Of a stretch of 64,000 bases of DNA, positions 2,766 to 63,673 are shown in pieces. This DNA comes from Leucoraja ocellata (Eukaryota): positions 1,550,001 to 1,614,000 of the forward strand of contig JAWMAR010000077.1 of NCBI GenBank assembly GCA_036785375.1, in the 5' to 3' direction. Numbering within the stretch: position 1 is the first letter of the stretch; each line of letters begins with the position of its first letter. The notes beneath the pieces were generated by a model. The model ran no database searches. It saw nothing but the letters and a program-made list of their open reading frames with translations, and had not been told where the DNA came from. The position numbers and the translations under genes are program-made.

Positions 2766-3270
2766 CAATGACTATAATAGATGCGTATGAATGTACGTGG
2801 ACTGCAACATTAGACATGGTTGCGCTACATTTAATTGTCCCGCACTGCAAAATTGACATCTGTAATGTACGACAGCATTGCTTTTAGGACATTTACAGCA
2901 GGTAGAACATGTCTCCCTATAAGCAGAAAAGCGTCAATTGTGAGAATATGATGCCTCTGCATGAACGAGAGCACATTGTTCTGCAACTGCTGTAGATTTG
3001 GGAGGAACAACAGCAACAACAGATTAGCAAGAGATACGACTGATTGGCTCTAGCCCAAGTGGGAGGAGAGGGGTGGAAACAGTTGAAAACTGAGGAATTT
3101 GCTCTGTAAATTGGTAAATCAGGCAATTTATCAGTCAATTTAAGCAGGACAGCTCTTTGCGAGCGGCAGTGAGTGAGCGGCCTTGTGAGGGAAGTGCCCT
3201 GTGAGTAAAGTGTGAGTCTTTGGCGAGGAGACCACGCAATAAGCTTGAGAGGTAGAGACCAAAGAAGGAG

Positions 3271-4188
3271 ATGTCAGGCAAGCTGATTCAGTGCGATGCT
3301 TGTAGTATGTGGGAGGTCAAGGACACCGCTGGTGCCTCTGGCTGCTACAAATGCGAAAAATGCATCCAGGTAGAGCTCCTGAAGGGCCGTGTTGGGGAAC
3401 TGGAGAAGCAAGTGGATGACCTCCGGTTCGTACGAGAAACGGAGTCGTTCCTCGACAAGTCCTACAGTACGATTGTTACACCTAAGGTACTGGAAGGGAG
3501 AAGGTGGGAGACAGTGAGAAAGGGAGGGAAGCATGGAATGCCAACGTCCCCGGGTGATGTACCTCTTGTAAACAGGTTCATCCGCTTAGAAGCTGTTGGG
3601 ACAGAAGACGTGAGCGGCGGACTGGCCTGTGATGCGAATAGGGCTGTTGAGCCAAAACCAAAAAGGCCTAAGGCAGGCAAGGCCATAGTAGTGGGAGACT
3701 CCATCGTGAGAGGTACGGACAGGGGTTTCTGCGGCAACAGACGGGATGCGAGGATGGTGTGCTGCCTTCCCGGTGCCAGGATCCAGGATGTCACGGACAG
3801 AGTGCAGAAAATCCTCAAGGGCGAAGGTGAACATCCGGAAGTGGTAGTGCATGTCGGCACAAACGATGTCGGAAAGAAGGGGATGAATATTCTGCAGCGT
3901 GACTTTAGAGAGCTCGGAAAAATGTTGAAAAGCAGGACCTCCAGGGTTGTTATCTCCGGTTTGCTTCCAGTTCCCCGTGCTGGCGAGAGCAGGAACAGGG
4001 AGATACGGGACCTGAACGTGTGGCTGAGGAACTGGTGCACGGGGCATGGATTTAGATTCTTAGATCACTGGGATCTGTTTTGGGGTAAGGGGGAACTGTA
4101 CAAAAGGGACGGATTGCATCTTAACAGGTGTGGGACCAGCATTCTGGCAGGCAGGTTTGCCACTGCTACACGGGTGGCTTTAAACTGA
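3271..4188 (+). CDS. CR1 ORF1p: zinc finger, coiled coil and SGNH esterase
   Basis: CDAC...CEKC zinc finger, LLKGRVGELEKQVDDL heptads, SGNH blocks VGDS, HVGTND, DGLH; 305 aa. Confidence 0.92.
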   Translation: MSGKLIQCDACSMWEVKDTAGASGCYKCEKCIQVELLKGRVGELEKQVDDLRFVRETESFLDKSYSTIVTPKVLEGRRWETVRKGGKHGMPTSPGDVPLVNRFIRLEAVGTEDVSGGLACDANRAVEPKPKRPKAGKAIVVGDSIVRGTDRGFCGNRRDARMVCCLPGARIQDVTDRVQKILKGEGEHPEVVVHVGTNDVGKKGMNILQRDFRELGKMLKSRTSRVVISGLLPVPRAGESRNREIRDLNVWLRNWCTGHGFRFLDHWDLFWGKGELYKRDGLHLNRCGTSILAGRFATATRVALN

Positions 4189-7100
4189 ATAAGGGGGGTG
4201 AGGTGTTGAATGGGACAGTGGAGGATGGAGTTAAAGGGAAAGGGTTTCTTAAATGTGTGAGCGTAGAGACCGAAGGGTGTAAAATGAGGGTAGAAGAAAT
4301 AGGTAGCAAGGTGAAAAGTAAAAGTGGCAGGCAGACAAAACCAGGGCAAAAATCAAAAAGGGCCACTTTTCAACATAATTGTATAAGGGGTAAGAGTGTT
4401 GTAAAAACAAGCCTGAAGGCTTTGTGTCTCAATGCAAGGAGCATTCGTAATAAGGTGGATGAGTTGAATGTGCAGATAGCTATTAATGACTATGATATAG
4501 TTGGGATCACGGAGACATGGCTCCAGGGTGACCAAGGCTGGGAGCTGAACATCCAGGGATATTCAATATTCAGGAGGGATAGACAGAAAGGAAAAGGAGG
4601 TGGGGTAGCGTTACTGATTAGAGAGGGGATTAATGCAATGGAAAGGAAGGACATTAGTTTGGAGGATGTGGAATCGGTATGGGTAGAGCTGCGAAACACT
4701 AAGGGGCAGAAAACGCTGGTGGGTGTTGTGTACAGGCCACCTAACAGTAGTAGTAAAGTTGGAGATGGTATCAAACAGGAAATTAGAAATGCGTGCGACA
4801 AAGGCAAAACGGTTATAATGGGTGACTTCAATCTACATATAGATTGGGTGAATCAAATTGGCAGGGGTGCTGAGGAAGAGGATTTCTTGGAATGTATGCG
4901 GGATAGTTATCTAAATCAACATGTAGAGGAACCAACGAGAGAGCAGGCTATTTTAGACTGGGTATTGAGTAATGAGGAAGGGTTAGTTAGCAATCTTGTT
5001 GTACGTGCCCCCTTGGGCAAGAGTGACCATAATATGGTTGAGTTCTTCATTAGGATGGAGAGTGACATTGTTAATTCAGAAACAATGGTTCTGAACTTAA
5101 AGAAAGGTAACTTTGAGGGTATGAGACGTGAATTGGCCAAGATTGACTGGCAATTAATTCTAAAAGGGTTGACGGTGGATATGCAATGGAAGACATTTAA
5201 AGACTGCATGGATGAACTACAAAAATTGTTCATCCCAGTTTGGCAAAAGAATAAATCAGGGAAGGTAGTACATCCATGGATAACAAGGGAAATCAGGGAT
5301 AGTATCAAAGCGAAGGATGATGCGTACAAATTAGCCAGAAAAAGCAGCATACCGGAGGACTGGGAGAAATTCAAAGACCAGCAGAGGAGGACAAAGGGCT
5401 TAATTAGGAAAGGGAAAATAGATTATGAAAGAAAACTGGCAGGGAACATAAAAACTGACTGCAAAAGTTTTTATAGATATGTGAAAAGAAAGAGATTAGT
5501 TAAAACAAATGTAGGTCCCTTGCAGTCAGAAACAGGTGAGTTGATCATGGGGAACAAGGATATGGCGGACCAATTGAATAACTACTTTGGTTCCGTCTTC
5601 ACTAAGGAAGACATAAATAATTTTCCGGAAATAGCAGGGGACCGCGGGTCAAAGGAGTTGGAGGAATTGAGTGAAATCCAGGTTAGCCGGGAAGTGGTGT
5701 TGGGTAAATTGAATGGATTAAAGGCCGATAAATCCCCAGGGCCAGATAGGCTGCATCCCAGAGTACTTAAGGAAGTAGCTCCAGAAATAGTGGATGCATT
5801 AGTAATAATCTTTCAAAACTCTTTAGATTCTGGAGTAGTTCCTGAAGATTGGCGGGTAGCAAACGTAACCCCACTTTTTAAGAAGGGAGGGAGAGATAAA
5901 ATGGGGAATTACAGACCAGTTAGTCTAACATCGGTAGTGGGGAAACTGCTAGAGTCAGTTATTAAAGATGGGATAGCAGCACATTTGGAAAGTGGTGAAA
6001 TCATTGGACAAAGTCAGCATGGATTTACGAAAGGTAAATCATGTCTGACGAATCTTATAGAATTTTTCGAGGATGTAACTAGTAGCGTGGATAGGGGAGA
6101 ACCAGTGGATGTGGTGTATCTGGACTTCCAGAAGGCTTTCGACAAGGTCCCACATAAGAGATTAGTATACAAACTTAAAGCACAAGGCATTGGGGGTTCA
6201 GTATTGATGTGGATAGAGAACTGGCTGGCAAACAGGAAGCAAAGAGTAGGAGTAAACGGGTCCTTTTCACAATGGCAGGCAGTGACTAGTGGGGTACCCC
6301 AAGGCTCAGTACTGGGACCCCAGCTATTTACAATATATATTAATGATCTGGATGAGGGAATTGAAGGCAATATCTCCATGTTTGCGGATGACACTAAGCT
6401 GGGGGGCAGTGTTAGCTGTGAGGAGGATGCTAGGAGACTGCAGGGTGACTTGGATAGGCTGGGTGAGTGGGCAAATGTTTGGCAGATGCAGTATAATGTG
6501 GATAAATGTGAGGTTATCCATTTTGGTGGCAAAAACAGGACAGCAGACTATTATCTAAATGGTGGCCGATTGGGAAAGGGGGAGATGCAGCGAGACCTGG
6601 GTGTCATGGTACACCAGTCATTGAAGGTAGGCATGCAGGTGCAGCAGGCAGTAAAGAAAGCGAATGGTATGTTAGCTTTCATTGCAAAAGGATTTGAGTA
6701 TAGGAGCAGAGAGGTTCTACTGCAGTTGTACAGAGTCTTGGTGAGACCACACCTGGAGTATTGCGTACAGTTTTGGTCTCCAAATCTGAGGAAGGACATT
6801 ATTGCCATAGAGGGAGTGCAGAGACGGTTCACCAGACTGATTCCTGGGATGTCAGGACTGTCTTATGAAGAAAGACTGGATAGGCTTGGTTTATACTCTC
6901 TAGAATTTAGAAGATTGAGAGGGGATCTTATAGAAACTTACAAAATTCTTAAGGGGTTGGACAGGCTAGATGCAGGAAGATTGTTCCCGATGTTAGGGAA
7001 GTCCAGGACAAGGGGTCACAGCTTAAGGATAAAGGGGAAATCCTTTAAAACCGAGATGAGAAGAACTTTTTTCACGCAGAGAGTGGTGAATCTCTGGAAC

Positions 7101-7220
7101 TCTCTGCCACAGAGGGTAGTTGAGGCCAGTTCATTGGCTATATTTAAGAGGGAGTTAGATGTGGCCCTTGTGGCTAAGGGGATCAGGGGGTATGGAGAGA
7201 AGGCAGGTACGGGATACTGA
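4179..7220 (+). CDS. CR1 ORF2p: APE endonuclease and reverse transcriptase (frame open from 4128; first in-frame ATG 4284; possibly entered by -1 frameshift at 4179-4185)
   Basis: APE motifs LNARS, ITETW, GDFN, LDWVL, SDHN; RT motifs YRPVSL, LDFQKAFD, GVPQGSVLGP, FADD; no internal stops. Confidence 0.95.
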   Translation, partial: FKLNKGGEVLNGTVEDGVKGKGFLKCVSVETEGCKMRVEEIGSKVKSKSGRQTKPGQKSKRATFQHNCIRGKSVVKTSLKALCLNARSIRNKVDELNVQIAINDYDIVGITETWLQGDQGWELNIQGYSIFRRDRQKGKGGGVALLIREGINAMERKDISLEDVESVWVELRNTKGQKTLVGVVYRPPNSSSKVGDGIKQEIRNACDKGKTVIMGDFNLHIDWVNQIGRGAEEEDFLECMRDSYLNQHVEEPTREQAILDWVLSNEEGLVSNLVVRAPLGKSDHNMVEFFIRMESDIVNSETMVLNLKKGNFEGMRRELAKIDWQLILKGLTVDMQWKTFKDCMDELQKLFIPVWQKNKSGKVVHPWITREIRDSIKAKDDAYKLARKSSIPEDWEKFKDQQRRTKGLIRKGKIDYERKLAGNIKTDCKSFYRYVKRKRLVKTNVGPLQSETGELIMGNKDMADQLNNYFGSVFTKEDINNFPEIAGDRGSKELEELSEIQVSREVVLGKLNGLKADKSPGPDRLHPRVLKEVAPEIVDALVIIFQNSLDSGVVPEDWRVANVTPLFKKGGRDKMGNYRPVSLTSVVGKLLESVIKDGIAAHLESGEIIGQSQHGFTKGKSCLTNLIEFFEDVTSSVDRGEPVDVVYLDFQKAFDKVPHKRLVYKLKAQGIGGSVLMWIENWLANRKQRVGVNGSFSQWQAVTSGVPQGSVLGPQLFTIYINDLDEGIEGNISMFADDTKLGGSVSCEEDARRLQGDLDRLGEWANVWQMQYNVDKCEVIHFGGKNRTADYYLNGGRLGKGEMQRDLGVMVHQSLKVGMQVQQAVKKANGMLAFIAKGFEYRSREVLLQLYRVLVRPHLEYCVQFWSPNLRKDIIAIEGVQRRFTRLIPGMSGLSYEERLDRLGLYSLEFRRLRGDLIETYKILKGLDRLDAGRLFPMLGKSRTRGHSLRIKGKSFKTEMRRTFFTQRVVNLWNSLPQRVVEASSLAIFKRELDVALVAKGIRGYGEKAGTGY

Positions 7221-7317
7221 GTTGGATGATCAGCCATGATCATATTGAATGGCGGTGCAGGCTCGAAGGGCCGAATGGCCTACTCCTGCACCTAATTTCT
7301 ATGTTTCTATGTTTCTA

Positions 7318-7565: not shown

Positions 7566-8007
7566 ATGTTCCCAATGATTTGTGCGATGTGCTTTTGGCT
7601 TGTTGCGCGCGTCTTCGTACAGGGAGCACTTTGCGAACCGATTAAGATCCCGATGTGCGAGGCGATGCCCTGGAATATCACGAGAATGCCCAACCATCTC
7701 CATCACAACACCCAAGAAAATGCTATTCTGGCTATAGAGCAGTACGTGGAATTAGTGGATACCAGTTGCAGTCCATTGCTGCGCTTCTTTCTCTGTGCAA
7801 TGTACGCGCCCATCTGCACCTTTGAATTTCTTCACGATCCTGTTAAACCATGTAAGTCAGTTTGCCAGAGAGCAAGAGACGGGTGCGAGCCTATTTTGAA
7901 AATATACAATCACAGCTGGCCCGAGATTCTAGCTTGCAATGACTTGCCCGAATACGACCGAGGAGTCTGCATCTCTCCCGAGGCAATTGTCACTGATTTA
8001 GCCGAAG
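7566..8007 (+). CDS. SFRP4: Secreted frizzled-related protein 4, exon 1 (signal peptide and Frizzled CRD)
   Basis: [11 protein letters not shown]...[27 protein letters not shown]...[33 protein letters not shown]...[10 protein letters not shown]; 10-Cys CRD; donor G|GTGAG at 8007/8008, phase 1. Confidence 0.95.
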
Positions 8008-8313
8008 GTGAGATATAAAATGTTTCCTCATTTTTATTGACGAGCCTTGTGAATATTTGGAGACGCCCAACAGTCCATCAACAAACGCATTAAAATGTGG
8101 ATGACTTCCCTTTTAAAAAGTGTGGATTTTATTTCAAATCACTTCGTTGTAATTTGTCATTTCCATCAGGAAAAAGGATGTGATCATCTATTAATTCGTT
8201 GATGAAAATGTCACTGGTGTTGCAAGAGTATACCACACCTTGCTATTCAGTTATTTATGCATAAGCCAATGTGTAGAATAAACTCAACCTTATGCTTTTG
8301 CTCCAACTTCCAG

Positions 8314-42461: not shown

Positions 42462-43324
42462 AAATAAATGCCAATGATCACCTCTTCACGTTCTCCTCAG
42501 GCAGTCCCCTAGGGTTGTGGTCCACTCGGTGGCATTCTTATTTTGTGGGTTCTGAGGTGGCTAATGAGGCCGGAGGTGACTGACAGGGCAGGTGGGGTGG
42601 GCAGTTTATGAGGTGTTGCAATTTACAGTGTCTCTGTGTAGACCCAGTGCATGGCCTTGAGGTTTCCAATGCAACCCAAATGGTCATTCCCCATCTTGAG
42701 CAGTCATTTGCTACAGATCCATAGATGTCAGTGGGGAAGTTGCATTCCTTTATGGTGGTTTTTTACCACATCTTTGCGTCTCCTCTTCCATCCACCTGAT
42801 AATCTCTTCCCATGCAGAGTACAGAATGGAGCCTCTTCTGACAATTTGTCCTCAGATCCTTGAATGCAGTGGCTGGCCCAATAGGTCTGATCTTGGGCCT
42901 GTGATATGGGGTGTGGGCCTGGGAGAGGACACTGTCATTAGCCACTTACCATTCTGGCCAAATGGACGGACATTGCGAAGAAGCCTTCGGTTTTATTTTT
43001 TCTTGTGACACCTGCTGTAGCAGTTCAGGATTCAGAGGTATATGTGAGGCCATGCATGCTGCCTGTGGAGTCCAATCTGATCCTAGCCTTCAGTGCTGTC
43101 CGTGAGGAGTTTTAATGCTCTTTCTTTGGCAGTTTGGGTTTCCTCCAGGTGCTTCAATTTCACATCCCATGAGCTGTGTTGATTCATTAACTGGCTGCTG
43201 TAAATTTCCCCCAATGTAAGTGGATGCAAAAGAGAATAGACAGACAATGTCTAGTTCAAATGGACAGTTTCGGGTTGAGATGCTTCCTCTAAACTTAAAG
43301 AGTTAAGTTTTCTAAACCAACGTA

Positions 43325-45697
43325 ACCAACGAGAAAGCAGGCTATTCGAGACTGGGTATTGAGTAATGAGGAAGGGTTAGTTAGCAGTCTTGTTGTGCGT
43401 GGCCTCTTGGGCAAGAACGACCATAATATGGTTGAGTTCTTCATTAGGATGGAGAGTGACATAGTTAATTCAGAAACAAGGGTTCTGAACATAAAGAAAG
43501 GTAACTTTGAGGGTATGAGACGTGAATTGGCCAAGATAGACTGGCAATTGATTCTTAATGGGTTGACGGTGGATATGCAATGGAAGGCATTTAAAGATTG
43601 CATGGATGAACTACAACAATTGTTCATCCCAGTTTGGCAAAAGAATGAATCAGGGAAGGTAGTGCATCCGTGGATAACAAGGGAAATCAGGGACAGTATC
43701 AAATCAAAAGATGAAGCATACAAATTAGCCAGAAAAAGCAGCCTACCAGAGGACTGGGAGAAATTCAGAGTCCAGCAGAGGAGGACAAAGGGCTTAATTA
43801 GGAAAGGGAAAGTAGATTATGAAAGAAAACTGGCAGGGAACATAAAAACTGACTGCAAACGTTTTTATAGATATGTGAAGAAAAAAAGATTAGTTAAAAC
43901 AAATGTAGGTCCCTTGCAGTCAGAAACAGGTGAATTGATCATGGGGAACAAGGACATGGCAGACCAATTGAATAACTACTTTGGTTCTGTCTTCACTAAG
44001 GAAGACATAAATAATCTTCCAGAAATAGCAGGGGACCGGGGGTCATACGAGATGGAGGAACTGAGTGAAATCCAGGTTATTCGGGAAGTTGTGTTAGGTA
44101 AATTGAATGGTTTAAAGGCCGATAAATCCCCAGGGCCAGATAGGCTGCATCCCAGTGTACTTAAGGAAGTAGCCCCAGAAATTGTGGATGCATTAGTGAT
44201 AATTTTTCAAAACTCTTTAGATTCTGGAGTAGTTCCTGATGATTGGAGGGTAGTTAATGTAACCCCACTTTTTAAAAAGGGAGGGAGTGAGAAAACGGGG
44301 AATTACAGACCAGTTAGTCTAACATCGGTAGTGGGGGAAATGATAGTCAGTTATTAAAGATGGGATAGCAGCACATTTGGAAAGTGGTGAAATCATTGGA
44401 CAAAGTCAGCATGGATTTATGAAAAGTAAATCATGTCTGATGAATCTTATATAATTTTTCGAGAATGTAACTAGTAGAGTGGATAAGGGAGAACCAGTGG
44501 ATATGTTATATCTGGACTTTCAGAAGGCTTTCGACATGGCCCCACATAAGAGATTAGTATACAAACTTAAAGCACCTGGTATTGGGGGTTCAGTATTGAT
44601 GTGGATAGAGAACTGGCTGGCAGACAGGAAGCAAAGAGTAGGAGTAAACGGGTCCTTTTAACAATGGCAGGCAGTGACTAGTGGGGTACTGCAAGGCTCA
44701 GTGCTGGGACCCCAGCTATTTACAATATATATTAATGATTTGGACGAGGGAATTGAATGCAACATCTTCAAGTTTGCAAATGACACGAAGCTGGGGGCAG
44801 TGTTAGCTGTGACGAGGATGCTAGGAGGCTGCAAGGTGACTTGGATAGGTTGGGTGAGTGGGCAAATGCATGGCAGATGCAGTATAATGTGGATAAATGT
44901 GAGGTTGTCCACTTTGGAAGCAAGAACAGGAAAGTAGACTATTATCTGAATGGTGGCCAATTTGGAAAAGAGGAGATGCAACGAGACCTGGGTGTCATGG
45001 TACACCAGTCATTGAAAGTAGGCATGCAGGTGCATCAGGCAGTGAAGAAAGCGAATGGTATGTTAGCATTCATAGCAAAAGTATTTGAATATAGGAGCAG
45101 GGAGGTCCTACTGCAGTTGTGCAGGGTCTTGGTGAGACCACACCTGGAGTATTGTGTACAGTTTTGGTCTCCTAATCTGAGGAAAGATATTCTTGTCACA
45201 GAGGGGGTACAGAGAAGGTTCGCCAGACTGGTTCCTGGAATGGCAGGACTTTCATATGAAGAACGATTGGATAGACTCGGCTTGTACTCGCTAGAATTTA
45301 GAAGATTGAGGGGGGATCTTATAGAAACTTACAAAATTCTTAAGGGGTTAGACAGGCTAGATGCAGGAAGATTGTTCCCGATGTTGGGGAAGTCCAGAAC
45401 AAGGGGTCACAGTTTAAGGATAAGGGGGAAGTCTTTTAGGACCGAGATGAGAAACACATTTTTCACACAGAGTGGTGAATCTGTGGAATTCTCTGCCACA
45501 GAAGGTAGTTGAGGCCAGTTCAGTGGCTATATTTAAGAAGGAGTTAGATGTGGCCCTTGTGGCTAAAGGGATCAAGGGGTATGGAGAGAAGGCAGGAGGT
45601 ACAGGATACTGAGTTGGATGATCAGCCATGATCATGTTGAATGGCGGTGCAGGCTCGAAGGGCCGAATGGCCTACTCCTGCACCTGTTTTCTATGTT
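43325..45697 (+). mobile_element. 5'-truncated CR1 (same family as 3140-7317) with several disabling mutations
   Basis: ORFs 43359-44357, 44479-44661 and 44841-45512 co-linear with ORF2; FANDT replaces FADDT. Confidence 0.95.
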
Positions 45698-47718
45698 ACT
45701 AAGTAGCCAGTATAAACAGGTGGGGAGAGGGCTGGGGCAAGGACTAGCAAGCGATAGATGGATACAGGTGAGGAGGTTGATTGGCAGGTAACAGGTGGAG
45801 AGAAGAGTGGATATGGCAACAGAGACTGGGAGGTGATAAGTTGAAAGCTAATTTCAGCTGATTCTGGAATTGATAAGAAGAAGGTGAAGAATGGAACTGA
45901 GTGAGAGGCGGTGGAAGATGGAAGCAACAGAGGGGGGGGGGGGGAGAGGGGAGCTGGGGGGGGGGGGGGGGGGGGGGGGGGGGAGGGGGAGGGGAGGGGG
46001 GGGGGGTTGAAATACTGCGTTCCAGTTCTCTTGATTGAAATCTTATTAACATAGCCTGGCCAGAGGCTCGGGTGGGAGTTTGGACGAGATGCAGCGCGGG
46101 CATGCTCGCATCTCTGCACAGCAAGGAAACAGTGCCTTCGGCCCATCTCGTCCATTCAAGCAACGTCAGTTCACTCCAGTATGTCCGCGAACCTGGACGA
46201 GAGGAAGTGTGAGATATCGGTAGCTGGGAGTGAGGTGCAGCAAATGCGCCTGCGGATAAGAATAACATCCATAAATATGCTCGGTTCTTAAACTTACTGT
46301 GCAATAAATAAATAAATAACCCCCATCCGGGAACATGCATAACATATTAACTAAATTAAACCGGAGATTGTACAAATAAATTCACCACTGACTAATGGGC
46401 AGGATTATCAAACAAAACGCCCTTGACATGCGGAGATACGAATCGAAGGACAAAATTAGTCTGTCAGAGTTGGTATTTGTTTTCTCTTACCCCATATTTG
46501 TCCCGTCTCAAAAGCCTCACTTCACACTGAACGCTACTATCTTTGTTTCAATAAAACCAGAACTTCCTTCAGTGGAGCAGTTGGTGCCATAATTCCACAG
46601 TGTTTGGGTTATTTTTAGAGAACTCTGCGGTGTGTTCAAGGCCTAAGGCAGCCCCGCAAAGCGTCAGGGACTCCAGTAATGACAACGGCCCGTTATGTTT
46701 CTGGGGAACGAGCCTTAAATAAAATTACGCGCCGACTGGTGAGGCTGCGGACAACTATTTTCCTCCTTCATAAAAAAAAAATCAAGGTAAAAACAAAAGA
46801 AAGCAAAGCTGAGTTAAGGGTTGATGGGAGGGGGTGCATTCCCTTGCCTGTACGCTATTCACATAATTCTCATGTTTATTTATGACAGTTCAGCCCATCG
46901 AGTCCATGCGGTACTGGGAACAATCTCATATTCCCACCATTGAGGCAACAGCCTTCCCACTTAGTACACCACCCGTCGACACCAGGGGCAATTTACAGCG
47001 GCCAAGCAACCCACGAGGTGACATGTTTTGGGATGTGGATGAATCCGAGCACACGGCGGAAACCTATGGAGTTATTCTGAGTAGGTTCACGCGTTGCGGA
47101 TTTCCACACACGGATAAAGGGGAGAACGAGGGATGGTACCAAATGAACGATGATGGAGGAACATTGCCACCAGCTCTCGGGCCATTGAGTCAGATGTTGG
47201 AACAGGACGTCGGGAGTAGCTGGGAGAAAGGCCCGTGAGGGGAAGGTGGGTGACTTGGCAGAGTGGGATATGAGGAGTGTGATGATAGCGACGATGGGAG
47301 AGATGGGAGAGGAGATGGGGAGCAGGGTCATAGAAGGTGAATATGGCGAGGTGAAATTGGGAAATGGGGGATGGGGGTAGGCTGGGGGAAGATGAAGAGC
47401 AAATGGTGAGAGAGAGAGATGGGGAGTTGGGAAATGGACAGTGATGTGGAGATGGGGAGACGGGAGAAGGGAATGTAGAGGGGAAGAGTGAGGAACATGG
47501 TGAGGGGAAATGGGGGTGCATAGTGGGGGAGATGGGGAGACGGGAAGAGGGGGAAAGGGGAGAAATTGGGAGCAGGGTGGGAGGACGGCAGGGGGGGTGT
47601 GAGGGAGGAATGGGGAATGGGGAATGGGAATGGGAAGATGAGAAAGGGAGGTGGGAGATGAGCGACTCGGGAGGGGAGCGGAGTGGTTTTAGTCCAATTC
47701 CAATCAGTAAACATATCT

Positions 47719-53644: not shown

Positions 53645-54396
53645 TTTATCTGAATGGTGGCCGATTAGGAAAAGGGAAGATGCAACGAGACCTGGGTGTC
53701 TTGGTACACCACTCAATGAAAGTAGGCATGCAGGTGCAGCAGGCAGTGAAGAAAGCCAATTGTATGTTAGCATTCATAGCAAAAGGATTTGAGTATAAGA
53801 GCAGGGAGGTTCTACTACAGTTGTACAAGGTCTTGGTGAGACCATACCTGGAATATTGCGTACAGTTTTAGTTTCCTAATCTGAGGATGGACATTCTTGC
53901 CATAGACGGAATACAGAGAAGGTTCACCAGACTGATTCCTGGGATGTCAGGACTTTCATATGAAGAAAGACTGGATAGACTCAGCTTGTACTCGCTAGAA
54001 TTTAGAAGATCTTATAGAAACTTACAAAATTCTTAACGGGTTGGACAGGCTAGATGCAGGAAGATTGTTCCCGATGTTGGGGAAGTCCAGAACAAGGGGT
54101 CACAGTTTAAGGATAAAGGGGAAATCTTTTAGGACTGAGATGAGAAAAACATTTTTTACACAGAGAATGGTGAATCTCTGGAATTATCTGCCACATAATG
54201 TAGTTGAGGCCAGTTCATTGGCTATATTTAAGAGGGAGTTAGATGTGGCCCTTGTGGCTAAAGGGATCAGGGGGATATGGAGAAAGGGCAGGTACAGGAT
54301 ACTGAGTTGGACGGTCAGCCATGATCATATTGAATTGCGGTGCAAGCTCGAAGGGCTGAATGGCCTACTCCTGCACCTATTTTCTATGTTTCTATA
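53645..54396 (+). mobile_element. CR1 3' fragment (same family as 3140-7317)
   Basis: YLNGGRLGKG.MQRDLGV...; TTTCTATG tail. Confidence 0.9.
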
Positions 54397-60949: not shown

Positions 60950-62233
60950 AATGAAGTGCAGATGCTGGTTTACACCAAAGACAATCATTAAATACTGCAG
61001 TAATTCAGCGGGTCAGGCAGCATCTCTGGATAAAGAAATAGGTGATGATTTTGGGCTGAAGCTGTGCTGAACTACTGTCTATTTCACTGGTGACCCTCAA
61101 ACTATCCTTGATCGGATTGTTCTGGCTTTACCTTGCACTAAACGTTATTCCCTTATCAGGTATCTACACACTAAATGGCTCCATTGTAATCATGCATTAT
61201 ATTTCCGCTGACAGAATAGCACGCAACAAAAGCTTTTCACTGCATCTCAGTACACGTGACAAAAAACAAAATTAAACTGAACTGACCCAAAAGGTCACCT
61301 ATTCCTTTTCTCCTGAGATGCTGCCTGGCCGGCTGAGTTACTCTAGCATTTTGTGACTATCTTAGGCTTTCCCATACACCCCCTCAGCCCCCTCATTACC
61401 TCTTTAGGCTCCTCCTCCCCCTTTCCTGGTTCCATTCACATACTCCCACGCACAGGGTCCCCTCATCATCTAGTTCCATCTGCTTTTCACCTCTCCCCAT
61501 TATCACCTTCTTTACTTATCTGTTTCCAATGTCCAGTCTTTGTGTGGTCGCTTGTCACCCTCTGGCCTCTGTCTTCAGCTTCACCCTCCTCTCCCTCCAT
61601 TTGGCTCCATCCATCCTCTTTCTCATTGCCTGTATCCACGCACGTCTGTCTCCCAATTTAACCCCTCCCCATATGGCTTCATCTTCCCGTCAAAGGTTCT
61701 CCCAACTTCAGGCTACCTATCATCCACTAGTCCGTATCTCGCCTTCCCCCTTCCTCTTCTATCGTCTCTCTCAGTCCTGCTGTAGGTTCGCCACACGAAA
61801 AGTTGCCCTCCCCCCCCGCCCGCCCGCCCTAGCTGCTCCACACAGTTCCTCCAGCTATTAATAGTTGCAGAGGGAAGTGAGTCTCCGGAATTCTCTGCCC
61901 ATTTAGAGGTAGACACAATTTGGAAAGAAATGTTTGAAAAGCAGTTAGATATTGCTCTAGGTTCCAGCGTCTGTAACCTTTGGTGTCCAAATTGAGCATT
62001 TGCGTCTACTACCCTCCCCCTAACCACAGCCTAACAAAACGTTGGGTTAATTCCATTAGTCAAAACACGGTTTCGAAGGTTGCAATCTCACACCCCAGTG
62101 TAGGAGTATGACCAGTTTTAGAAGCAGGAGCAACTGTAGGAACTGGAACTGGAGCAAGAGCAGCTGTTGGTGCAGGAGCATGAGTGGGAACAGCGGTAGG
62201 AGCAGGAACTGCAGTTGCCGTAGGAGTAAACCT

Positions 62234-63673
62234 AAGAAGGGAGGGATGAGAGAAAACGGGGAATTACAGACCAGTTAGTCTAACATCGGTAGTGGGGAAA
62301 CTGCTAGAGTCAGTTATTAAAGATGGGATAGCAGCACATTTGGAAAGTGGTGAAATCATTGGACAAAGTCAGCATGGATTTACGAAAGGTAAATCATGTC
62401 TGACGAATCTTATAGAATTTTTCGAGGATGTAACTAGTAGCGTGGATAGAGGAGAACCAGTGGATGTGGTGTATCTGGACTTCCAGAAGGCTTTCGACAA
62501 GGTCCCACATAAGAGATTAGTATACAAACTTAAAGCACAAGGCATTGGGGGTTCAGTATTGATGTGGATAGAGAACTGGCTGGCAAACAGGAAGCAAAGA
62601 GTAGGAGTAAACGGGTCCTTTTCACAATGGCAGGCAGTGACTAGTGGGGTACCGCAAGGCTCAGTGCTGGGACCCCAGCTATTTACAATATATATTAATG
62701 ATCTGGATGAGGGAATTGAAGGCAATATCTCCAAGTTTGCGGATGACACTAAGCTGGGGGGCAGTGTTAGCTGTGAGGAGGATGCTAGGAGACTGCAAGG
62801 TGACTTGGATAGGCTGGGTGAGTGGGCAAATGTTTGGCAGATGCAGTATAATGTGGATAAATGTGAGGTTATCCATTTTGGTGGCAAAAACGGGAAAGCA
62901 GACTATTATCTAAATGGTGGCCGATTGGGAAAGGAGGAAATGCAGCGAGACCTGGGTGTCATGGTACACCAGTCATTGAAGGTAGGCATGCAGGTGCAGC
63001 AGGCAGTAAAGAAAGCGAATGGTATGTTAGCTTTCATTGCAAAAGGATTTGAGTATAGGAGCAGGGAGGTTCTACTGCAGTTGTACAGGGTCTTGGTGAG
63101 ACCACACCTGGAGTATTGCGTACAGTTTTGGTCTCCAAATCTGAGGAAGGACATTATTGCCATAGAGGGAGTGCAGAGACGGTTCACCAGACTGATTCCT
63201 GGGATGTCAGGACTGTCTTATGAAGAAAGACTGGATAGACTTGGTTTATACTCTCTAGAATTTAGGAGATTGAGAGGGGATCTTATAGAAACTTACAAAA
63301 TTCTTAAGGGGTTGGACAGGCTAGATGCAGGAAGATTGTTCCCGATGTTAGGGAAGTCCAGGACAAGCGGTCACAGCTTAAGGATAAGGGGGAAATCCTT
63401 TGAAACCGAGATGAGAAGAACTTTTTTCACACAGAGCGTGGTGAATCTCTGGAACTCTCTGCCACAGAGGGTAGTTGGGGCCAGTTCATTGGCTATATTT
63501 AAGAGGGAGTTAGATGTGGCCCTTGTAGCTAAGGGGATCAGTGGGTATGGAGAGAAGGCAGGTACGGGATACTGAGTTGGATGATCAGCCATGATCATAT
63601 TGAATGGCAGTGCAGGCTCGAAGGGCCGAATGGCCTACTCCTGCACCTAATTTCTATGTTTCTATGTTTCTAT
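62234..63673 (+). mobile_element. Very young 5'-truncated CR1 with open RT frame
   Basis: 427-aa ORF 62292-63575 differs from the full-length ORF2 at about 10 residues; (TTTCTATG)n tail. Confidence 0.96.

Follow-up and report, generated by a model that had tools for sequence, protein, structure and literature searches.

The 64,000-nucleotide stretch of Leucoraja ocellata DNA analysed here (the window; contig JAWMAR010000077.1, positions 1,550,001 to 1,614,000 of the forward strand) carries a full-length CR1 long interspersed nuclear element (LINE), the two open reading frames (ORF1 and ORF2) of which meet at a U_UUA_AAC heptamer. Judging from comparison of related junctions, we consider it probable, at roughly 85%, that −1 programmed ribosomal frameshifting at this heptamer yields an ORF1-ORF2 fusion protein in CR1. 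U_UUA_AAC is the slippery heptamer of the coronavirus 1a/1b junction. Specifically, ORF1 closes with a T at 4179, TTA AAC at 4180–4185, and the stop codon TGA at 4186–4188, so that the heptamer stands in X_XXY_YYZ phase, and the −1 frame reads GFKLNKGGE through the heptamer. The ORF2 frame, −1 relative to ORF1, is open over 4125–7220, and a run of six G residues begins at 4193, leaving a 7-nt spacer from the heptamer. The initial annotation had claimed the phased heptamer at the ORF1 stop, the open −1 frame, and the G run 7 nt downstream, and the coordinates confirm all three.

To compare junctions, copies were drawn from loci fetched by pattern and protein searches (L001–L266). A copy was retained when the 168 codons of its esterase end were uninterrupted, its identity was 40% or more, and its stop lay 25–27 codons past the catalytic Asp, a filter that conditions on the position of the stop and not on codons. 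Truncated, decayed, L2-type, and bacterial loci were excluded, as were re-fetched loci (L267–L292) and five loci that matched another exactly across 1.3 kb. The 117 distinct copies that were retained form five clusters, four from this genome (A, 35 copies; S, 31; T, 31; D, 19) and one represented by a single metagenome record (L061). The five lineages share 52–73% nucleotide identity over 169 codons, and TTTAAAC followed directly by a stop is present in 115 of the 117 copies.

We then examined codon columns using one natural representative per lineage, with L121 taken instead of the atypical L114. Among 48 columns in which a degenerate amino acid is invariant, only three use a single codon throughout, namely a Cys column and the two columns of the site, Leu as TTA and Asn as AAC, and TTA is used at only 10 of the 81 other Leu codons. 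The codon before the site is GCT, CAT, TCT, ACT, or GAT, encoding five different residues, and its third base is always T (T makes up 20% of third bases), while the stop after the heptamer varies among TGA, TAA, and TAG. Because the site codons are fixed while the preceding residue and the stop vary, the constraint acts on RNA letters rather than on protein. Slightly upstream, at 4170–4178 of the window, both codons preceding the variable codon have a third-base G in all five lineages although their residues differ, as does one unrelated column; the two upstream G residues may belong to the signal, as a component on its 5′ side, or may be plain G bias. Queries of this genome with a turtle-type and a GN-ending ORF1 returned no lineage nearer, by identity, than the families already found. 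Of 17 loci from a metagenome scan, only L061 is a CR1 junction; prokaryote genomes gave six loci, none relevant, and viral contigs and plasmids gave no matches.

The −1 frame is open from the heptamer to the NARS motif of the endonuclease in 94 of the 117 copies, with all five lineages represented. The intervening linker is 35 codons long in L061, 55–57 in T, 66 in S, 68 in D, and 84 in A, and the linker sequences are unrelated. The other two frames of the linker contain 4–10 stops each in A, S, T, and D, and 0 and 2 stops in L061. The initial annotation had proposed comparing junctions between families; in that comparison the heptamer is fixed at synonymous positions and ORF2 is always in the −1 frame in intact copies, and this cross-lineage conservation supports, at the level of sequence, the gag-pol-like frameshift put forward there. 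Several chimeric CR1 copies (L173, L214–L223, L224–L228) join a T or D junction to a family A linker and endonuclease, with the −1 frame still open, which suggests recombination between families at the linker; in one chimeric copy (L279/L173) the linker is 112 codons long.

The first in-frame Met of ORF2 is codon 35 in A, codon 38 in S, and codon 3 in D, where stop and start overlap as UAAUG. No Met precedes NARS in L061 or in 15 of the 21 open T copies, and three T copies have no Met until codon 242. An AUG-started ORF2 in L061 and in those T copies would lack the start of the endonuclease. ATG 4284, on which ORF2 would depend alone in one outcome considered in the initial annotation, is not conserved between lineages. 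The main rival explanation is that a separate ORF2 protein is made by termination-reinitiation past the ORF1 stop, either at a nearby AUG as in SART1 or independently of AUG as in L1, with the conserved letters serving as a reinitiation signal. Family D does carry at its stop the UAAUG pentamer that is established for SART1 (in the portion covered of PMC2699510), and families A and S possess in-frame ATGs. However, a conserved AUG overlapping or near the ORF1 stop is found in only one of the five lineages (D), the AUG lying 95 nt (A) or 104 nt (S) past the stop and being absent in L061 and most T copies. The open linker could also result if translation restarted in the −1 frame directly at the stop without an AUG, and for L1 the portion covered of PMC5009743 describes ORF2 as probably starting independently of its AUG; reinitiation does not, however, predict an exact in-phase X_XXY_YYZ heptamer. 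We regard reinitiation as an improbable explanation of the junction, though in family D it may operate alongside frameshifting.

Proteins from other vertebrates carry residues that match the two readings of the site. ORF1 homologs were counted if they were at least 42% alike and ended 22–28 residues past the catalytic Asp; 56 of 275 proteins lacked the motif. The terminal residues are LN in 60 of 63 such homologs from a single-query search and in 80 of 86 overall, the former being the fairer count because the profile behind the other searches was built from sequences chosen partly for their LN end. The hosts named for LN-ending homologs include sharks, rays, coelacanth, a teleost, frogs, and turtles. 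Furthermore, FKL, the −1 reading of the site, is found upstream of NARS and in frame with the endonuclease in 24 of 120 ORF2 homologs (20 stork models and one each from an ibis, a godwit, a ray, and an unnamed host); 77 of the 120 lack FKL, most of them beginning too far downstream, and the other 19 did not match the motif used in the search. In the bird models FKL is followed by D-x-K-G-E-G, compatible with a G tract. One protein, P0127, is a read-through copy that reads RYLKLVGQGG...CLNARS where its siblings end in RYLN, and it has no Met before NARS. Among more distant homologs, 42 of 93 distinct tails end in N, and 37 of those 42 end in LN, GN, KN, or PN, compared with a background frequency of 26% for L, G, K, or P before N; about 16 more tails have an internal KN at the equivalent place and 30 have no such pair, the tails being mutually related. 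LN, GN, KN, and PN are the four spellings of X_XXA_AAC, of which GN, KN, and PN are known here from protein only. CR1-like ORF1 or ORF2 proteins are also recorded under the names Pseudomonas aeruginosa, Carnobacterium, and Candidatus Brocadiaceae (P0016, P0286, P0365); they come from short contigs and are probably animal DNA contamination.

The invariance of LN in protein raises the alternative that the conserved letters reflect protein constraint, on the Leu-Asn end of ORF1 and the Phe-Lys-Leu and Gly-rich start of ORF2, or that they form an RNA or DNA element with no role in translation, ORF2 having its own start or transcript. Overlapping frames are able to freeze codons, but a dual-frame constraint on FKL presupposes −1 translation, that is, the frameshift itself. 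Moreover, the L2-type esterase family of the same genome ends without a slippery site and without LN, and the solved L2 esterase 4C1B aligns up to profile position 313 of 317, short of LN, so the esterase fold does not need these residues. We consider this alternative very unlikely. In the L2-type family (L194–L213), ORF1 at its end passes into a short duplication and into C runs whose length varies, and the position of the stop differs among copies.

RNA reads from a related organism were inspected at the junction (two bulk runs, of which some 5% was covered, and one single-cell run, of which 1% was covered; indels are listed at a share of at least 5%). These reads derive from many copies and, in near-equal shares in the bulk runs, from both strands, and so are uninformative on the expression of a unit-length RNA and on expression level. 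No prominent RNA start is listed before ORF2, which, given that mixture of copies and strands, is weak evidence against a separate ORF2 transcript. Joining of the frames in the RNA by splicing, editing, or polymerase slippage, for which the short homopolymer runs at the site offer an opportunity, is scarcely credible, as no indel at a share of at least 5% occurs at 4179–4188 (events below 5% would escape), no joint occurs there in the two bulk runs at a depth of about 85–105, and joints near the site appear in only 3–4 of more than 1000 single-cell reads.

Downstream of the heptamer, a run of 4–7 G residues starts at +8 to +11 in 10 of 10 junctions, and by G4Hunter the junction G tract ranks within the top 0–2.3% of ORF2 25-mers. 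In the window copy the second G tract is interrupted by an A at 4201, a position that is G in 28 of the 30 closest copies. Quadruplex formation is predicted by ViennaRNA for 4 of the 10 junctions. In reporters, quadruplexes placed 6–8 nt past UUUAAAC gave up to 7% −1 shift, according to the portion covered of Yu et al. (PMC3919603), which gives the usual stimulator distance as 5–8 nt and leaves natural sites open. We suggest that the stimulator is most likely the conserved G tract 7–10 nt downstream, acting as a two-tier quadruplex or a protein-binding site, and this is the least certain part of the proposal; the stop adjoining the heptamer perhaps helps stimulation.

Base pairing at long range between the G tract and the element's 3′ end was considered as another stimulator and rejected, as families A, T, and D do not exceed dinucleotide shuffles: family A gives −19.8 to −20.8 against null means of −20.9 to −23.0, and T and D fall inside the null range. 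In family S all shuffles were beaten in two of three copies, at a non-homologous site, and several copies of families G and R were too decayed to judge. Family S has a long 3′ untranslated region (UTR) in which TGCCTCCCCC, about 3100 nt past the slip site in L267, is able to pair over 10 bases with the family's own G tract; the same segment is also predicted to lie within a local stem.

In the proposed frameshift mechanism, most ribosomes would halt at UGA and release the 305-residue (34 kDa) ORF1 protein. In a minority, tRNA-Leu and tRNA-Asn would shift from UUA AAC onto UUU AAA, and reading would go on from RVALN into LNKGG, producing a 1316-residue (148 kDa) esterase-APE-RT protein (RT, reverse transcriptase); the product computed from ATG 4284 is 111 kDa. 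The slip frequency would set the ratio of ORF1 to ORF2 product, in the manner of Gag to Gag-Pol. What the DNA shows is a heptamer in phase, a stop beside it, and an open −1 frame, all of them conserved; slippage and the fusion protein we infer from these.

Several observations limit this interpretation or weigh against it. Taken alone, occurrence in a single element is weak evidence, being only modestly above chance: in 100,000 recodings with the protein held fixed and the element's own codon usage, TTTAAAC arose at the ORF1 end in 2.1% and any canonical heptamer within the overlap in 5.0%, and one further in-phase canonical heptamer lies inside ORF1, at 3723. We count the observation as real because it is drawn from comparison across lineages and not from a single element. 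The lineages share ancestry, so copy counts are not independent, and a single DNA record (L061) comes from outside this genome, other vertebrates being covered by protein only. The linker contains a stop, a shifted frame, or no recognizable motif in 23 of the 117 copies, as expected of decaying copies. In-frame ATGs precede NARS in nearly all copies of A, S, and D, and a Met lies between FKL and NARS, at varying positions, in 23 of the 24 FKL models. With respect to the stimulator, 70 nt past the site fold to just −1.7 to −14 kcal/mol, leading us to reject a local downstream hairpin; G4Hunter scores are weak (1.1–1.2) in L061 and subfamily T2; and the canonical three-tier G3-N1-7 quadruplex is absent in 10 of 10 junctions. 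The G-quadruplex stimulation suggested in the initial annotation is thus upheld as regards a conserved G tract and not as regards a canonical three-tier structure.

CR1 resembles coronavirus 1a/1b and retroviral gag-pol in its heptamer and phase (coronavirus), its −1 overlap, the distance to its candidate stimulator, and the placing of a structural ORF before a polymerase ORF. It differs in being a non-LTR (long terminal repeat) retrotransposon, in having a G tract with no predicted hairpin or pseudoknot (pseudoknots lie outside the folding model), and in having a stop that abuts the heptamer. No protease domain that could cut the fusion was found in a domain search of the element's proteins. 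CR1 shares with L1 and SART1 a LINE RNA that is bicistronic and would yield ORF2 as the minor product, and family D has UAAUG in common with SART1; unlike CR1, whose ORFs overlap at a fixed heptamer and whose AUG is not conserved, L1 and SART1 make a separate ORF2 protein. Dictyostelium TRE5-A and TRE3-A are likewise APE-RT LINEs, different from CR1 in lineage and ORF1; according to a figure legend in PMC5911963 they need a −1 frameshift for ORF2. The constructs of PMC3919603, as described in the portion covered, share UUUAAAC and downstream G tracts with CR1 and differ in having artificial three-tier quadruplexes, a pattern that the CR1 tract does not fit.

In the portions of the literature covered, PMC5009743 ascribes L1 ORF2 to unusual initiation and does not contain the word CR1, and PMC5405496 suggests a +1 shift or reinitiation for Paramecium LINEs. 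The word frameshift is absent from the covered text of the CR1/L2 esterase papers PMC3905857 and PMC4120745, and the covered text of PMC4255032, PMC5006619, and PMC1965478 contains nothing on CR1 frameshifting. Our literature search found no report of CR1 frameshifting; the founding CR1 papers, Repbase entries, and supplements were outside its scope, and prior mention is possible. On the comparisons above, the best explanation of the junction is −1 programmed frameshifting, a mechanism already known elsewhere, here in a setting that is new and widespread and with a candidate stimulator of an unusual sort. A broader proposal is tentative, and we give it a little less than even odds: all CR1 elements with an esterase, from sharks to birds together with invertebrate-type relatives, would make their polymerase as part of a Gag-Pol-like fusion, by way of an ancient X_XXA_AAC frameshift for which a bare G tract, neither hairpin nor pseudoknot, is the natural stimulator.

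Features of the CR1 element and its ORF1-ORF2 junction in the window
Feature	Position	Strand	Description
CR1 LINE, full-length, young (family A)	2985–7317	+	Ends approximate; other copies align from about 2976–2987 and stop at 7317, 97–99% identity
ORF1, 305 residues, ATG 3271	3271–4188	+	CxxC-x-CxxC N-terminal region and SGNH/GDSL esterase; C-terminus RVALN-stop
Slippery heptamer U_UUA_AAC, in ORF1 phase	4179–4185	+	From sequence and five-lineage conservation
ORF1 stop, abutting the heptamer	4186–4188	+	TGA in the window element; TAA or TAG in other lineages
G tract, candidate stimulator	4193–4203	+	G6-T-G4 in most copies, G6-T-GAGG in the window element
ORF2 from the slip site	4179–7220	+	84-codon linker, APE endonuclease, reverse transcriptase; 1013 stop-free codons
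First in-frame ATG of ORF2	4284–4286	+	95 nt 3′ of the ORF1 stop; not conserved between lineages
3′ UTR	7221–7317	+	Predicted stem-loop and short (TTTCTATG) repeat tail, without poly(A); from sequence and fold

A 3′ stem-loop and a short repeat tail in place of poly(A) are a feature of CR1, and the window element has a 3′ end of this type. The element is assigned to CR1 by its architecture and by its APE region, which is 36–40% identical to LINE proteins of birds and turtles; its layout is that of CR1 with a type IVB ORF1. The ORF1 frame extends from stop to stop over 3256–4188, and its product matches the esterase domain PF13472 (E = 5.5e-13) and the structure 4C1B, an ORF1-encoded protein; ORF2 contains PF03372 (APE) and PF00078 (RT). 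CR1 subgroup 7 with ORF1 type IVB, as described in the portion covered of Metcalfe and Casane (PMC4120745), has the same zinc-finger/leucine-zipper and esterase ORF1, an APE-RT ORF2, and a vertebrate host. The nearest protein is 97% identical and is named from a skate. The genome holds 998 first-look candidate junctions, and family A is young, since the best 40 junction matches are about 100% identical. A rough search found no target-site duplication longer than 7 nt around the element. Further 5′-truncated CR1 copies, with 78–98% identity to the element, lie at 1540–2762, 43306–45704, 53646–54395, and 62233–63672 of the window. About 250 nt past the CR1 3′ end, in the same orientation, an exon-like ORF at 7566–8018 (+) contains a frizzled cysteine-rich domain (PF01392, E = 5e-31) and is likely part of a secreted frizzled-related protein gene.

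The way in which LINEs produce ORF2 protein from an RNA with two genes has long been in question and is answered for few elements (by reinitiation for L1 and SART1); in sharks, reptiles, and birds, CR1 ranks among the major LINEs. If the frameshift reading is true, the active CR1 enzyme would be a 148-kDa fusion that includes the esterase, and ORF2 annotations beginning at the first Met would be truncated. Furthermore, the frame offset between ORF1 and ORF2 would be a design feature and not decay, and CR1 retrotransposition assays would require the native junction. If the G tract is the stimulator, CR1 would provide a natural case of a kind so far demonstrated with artificial constructs.

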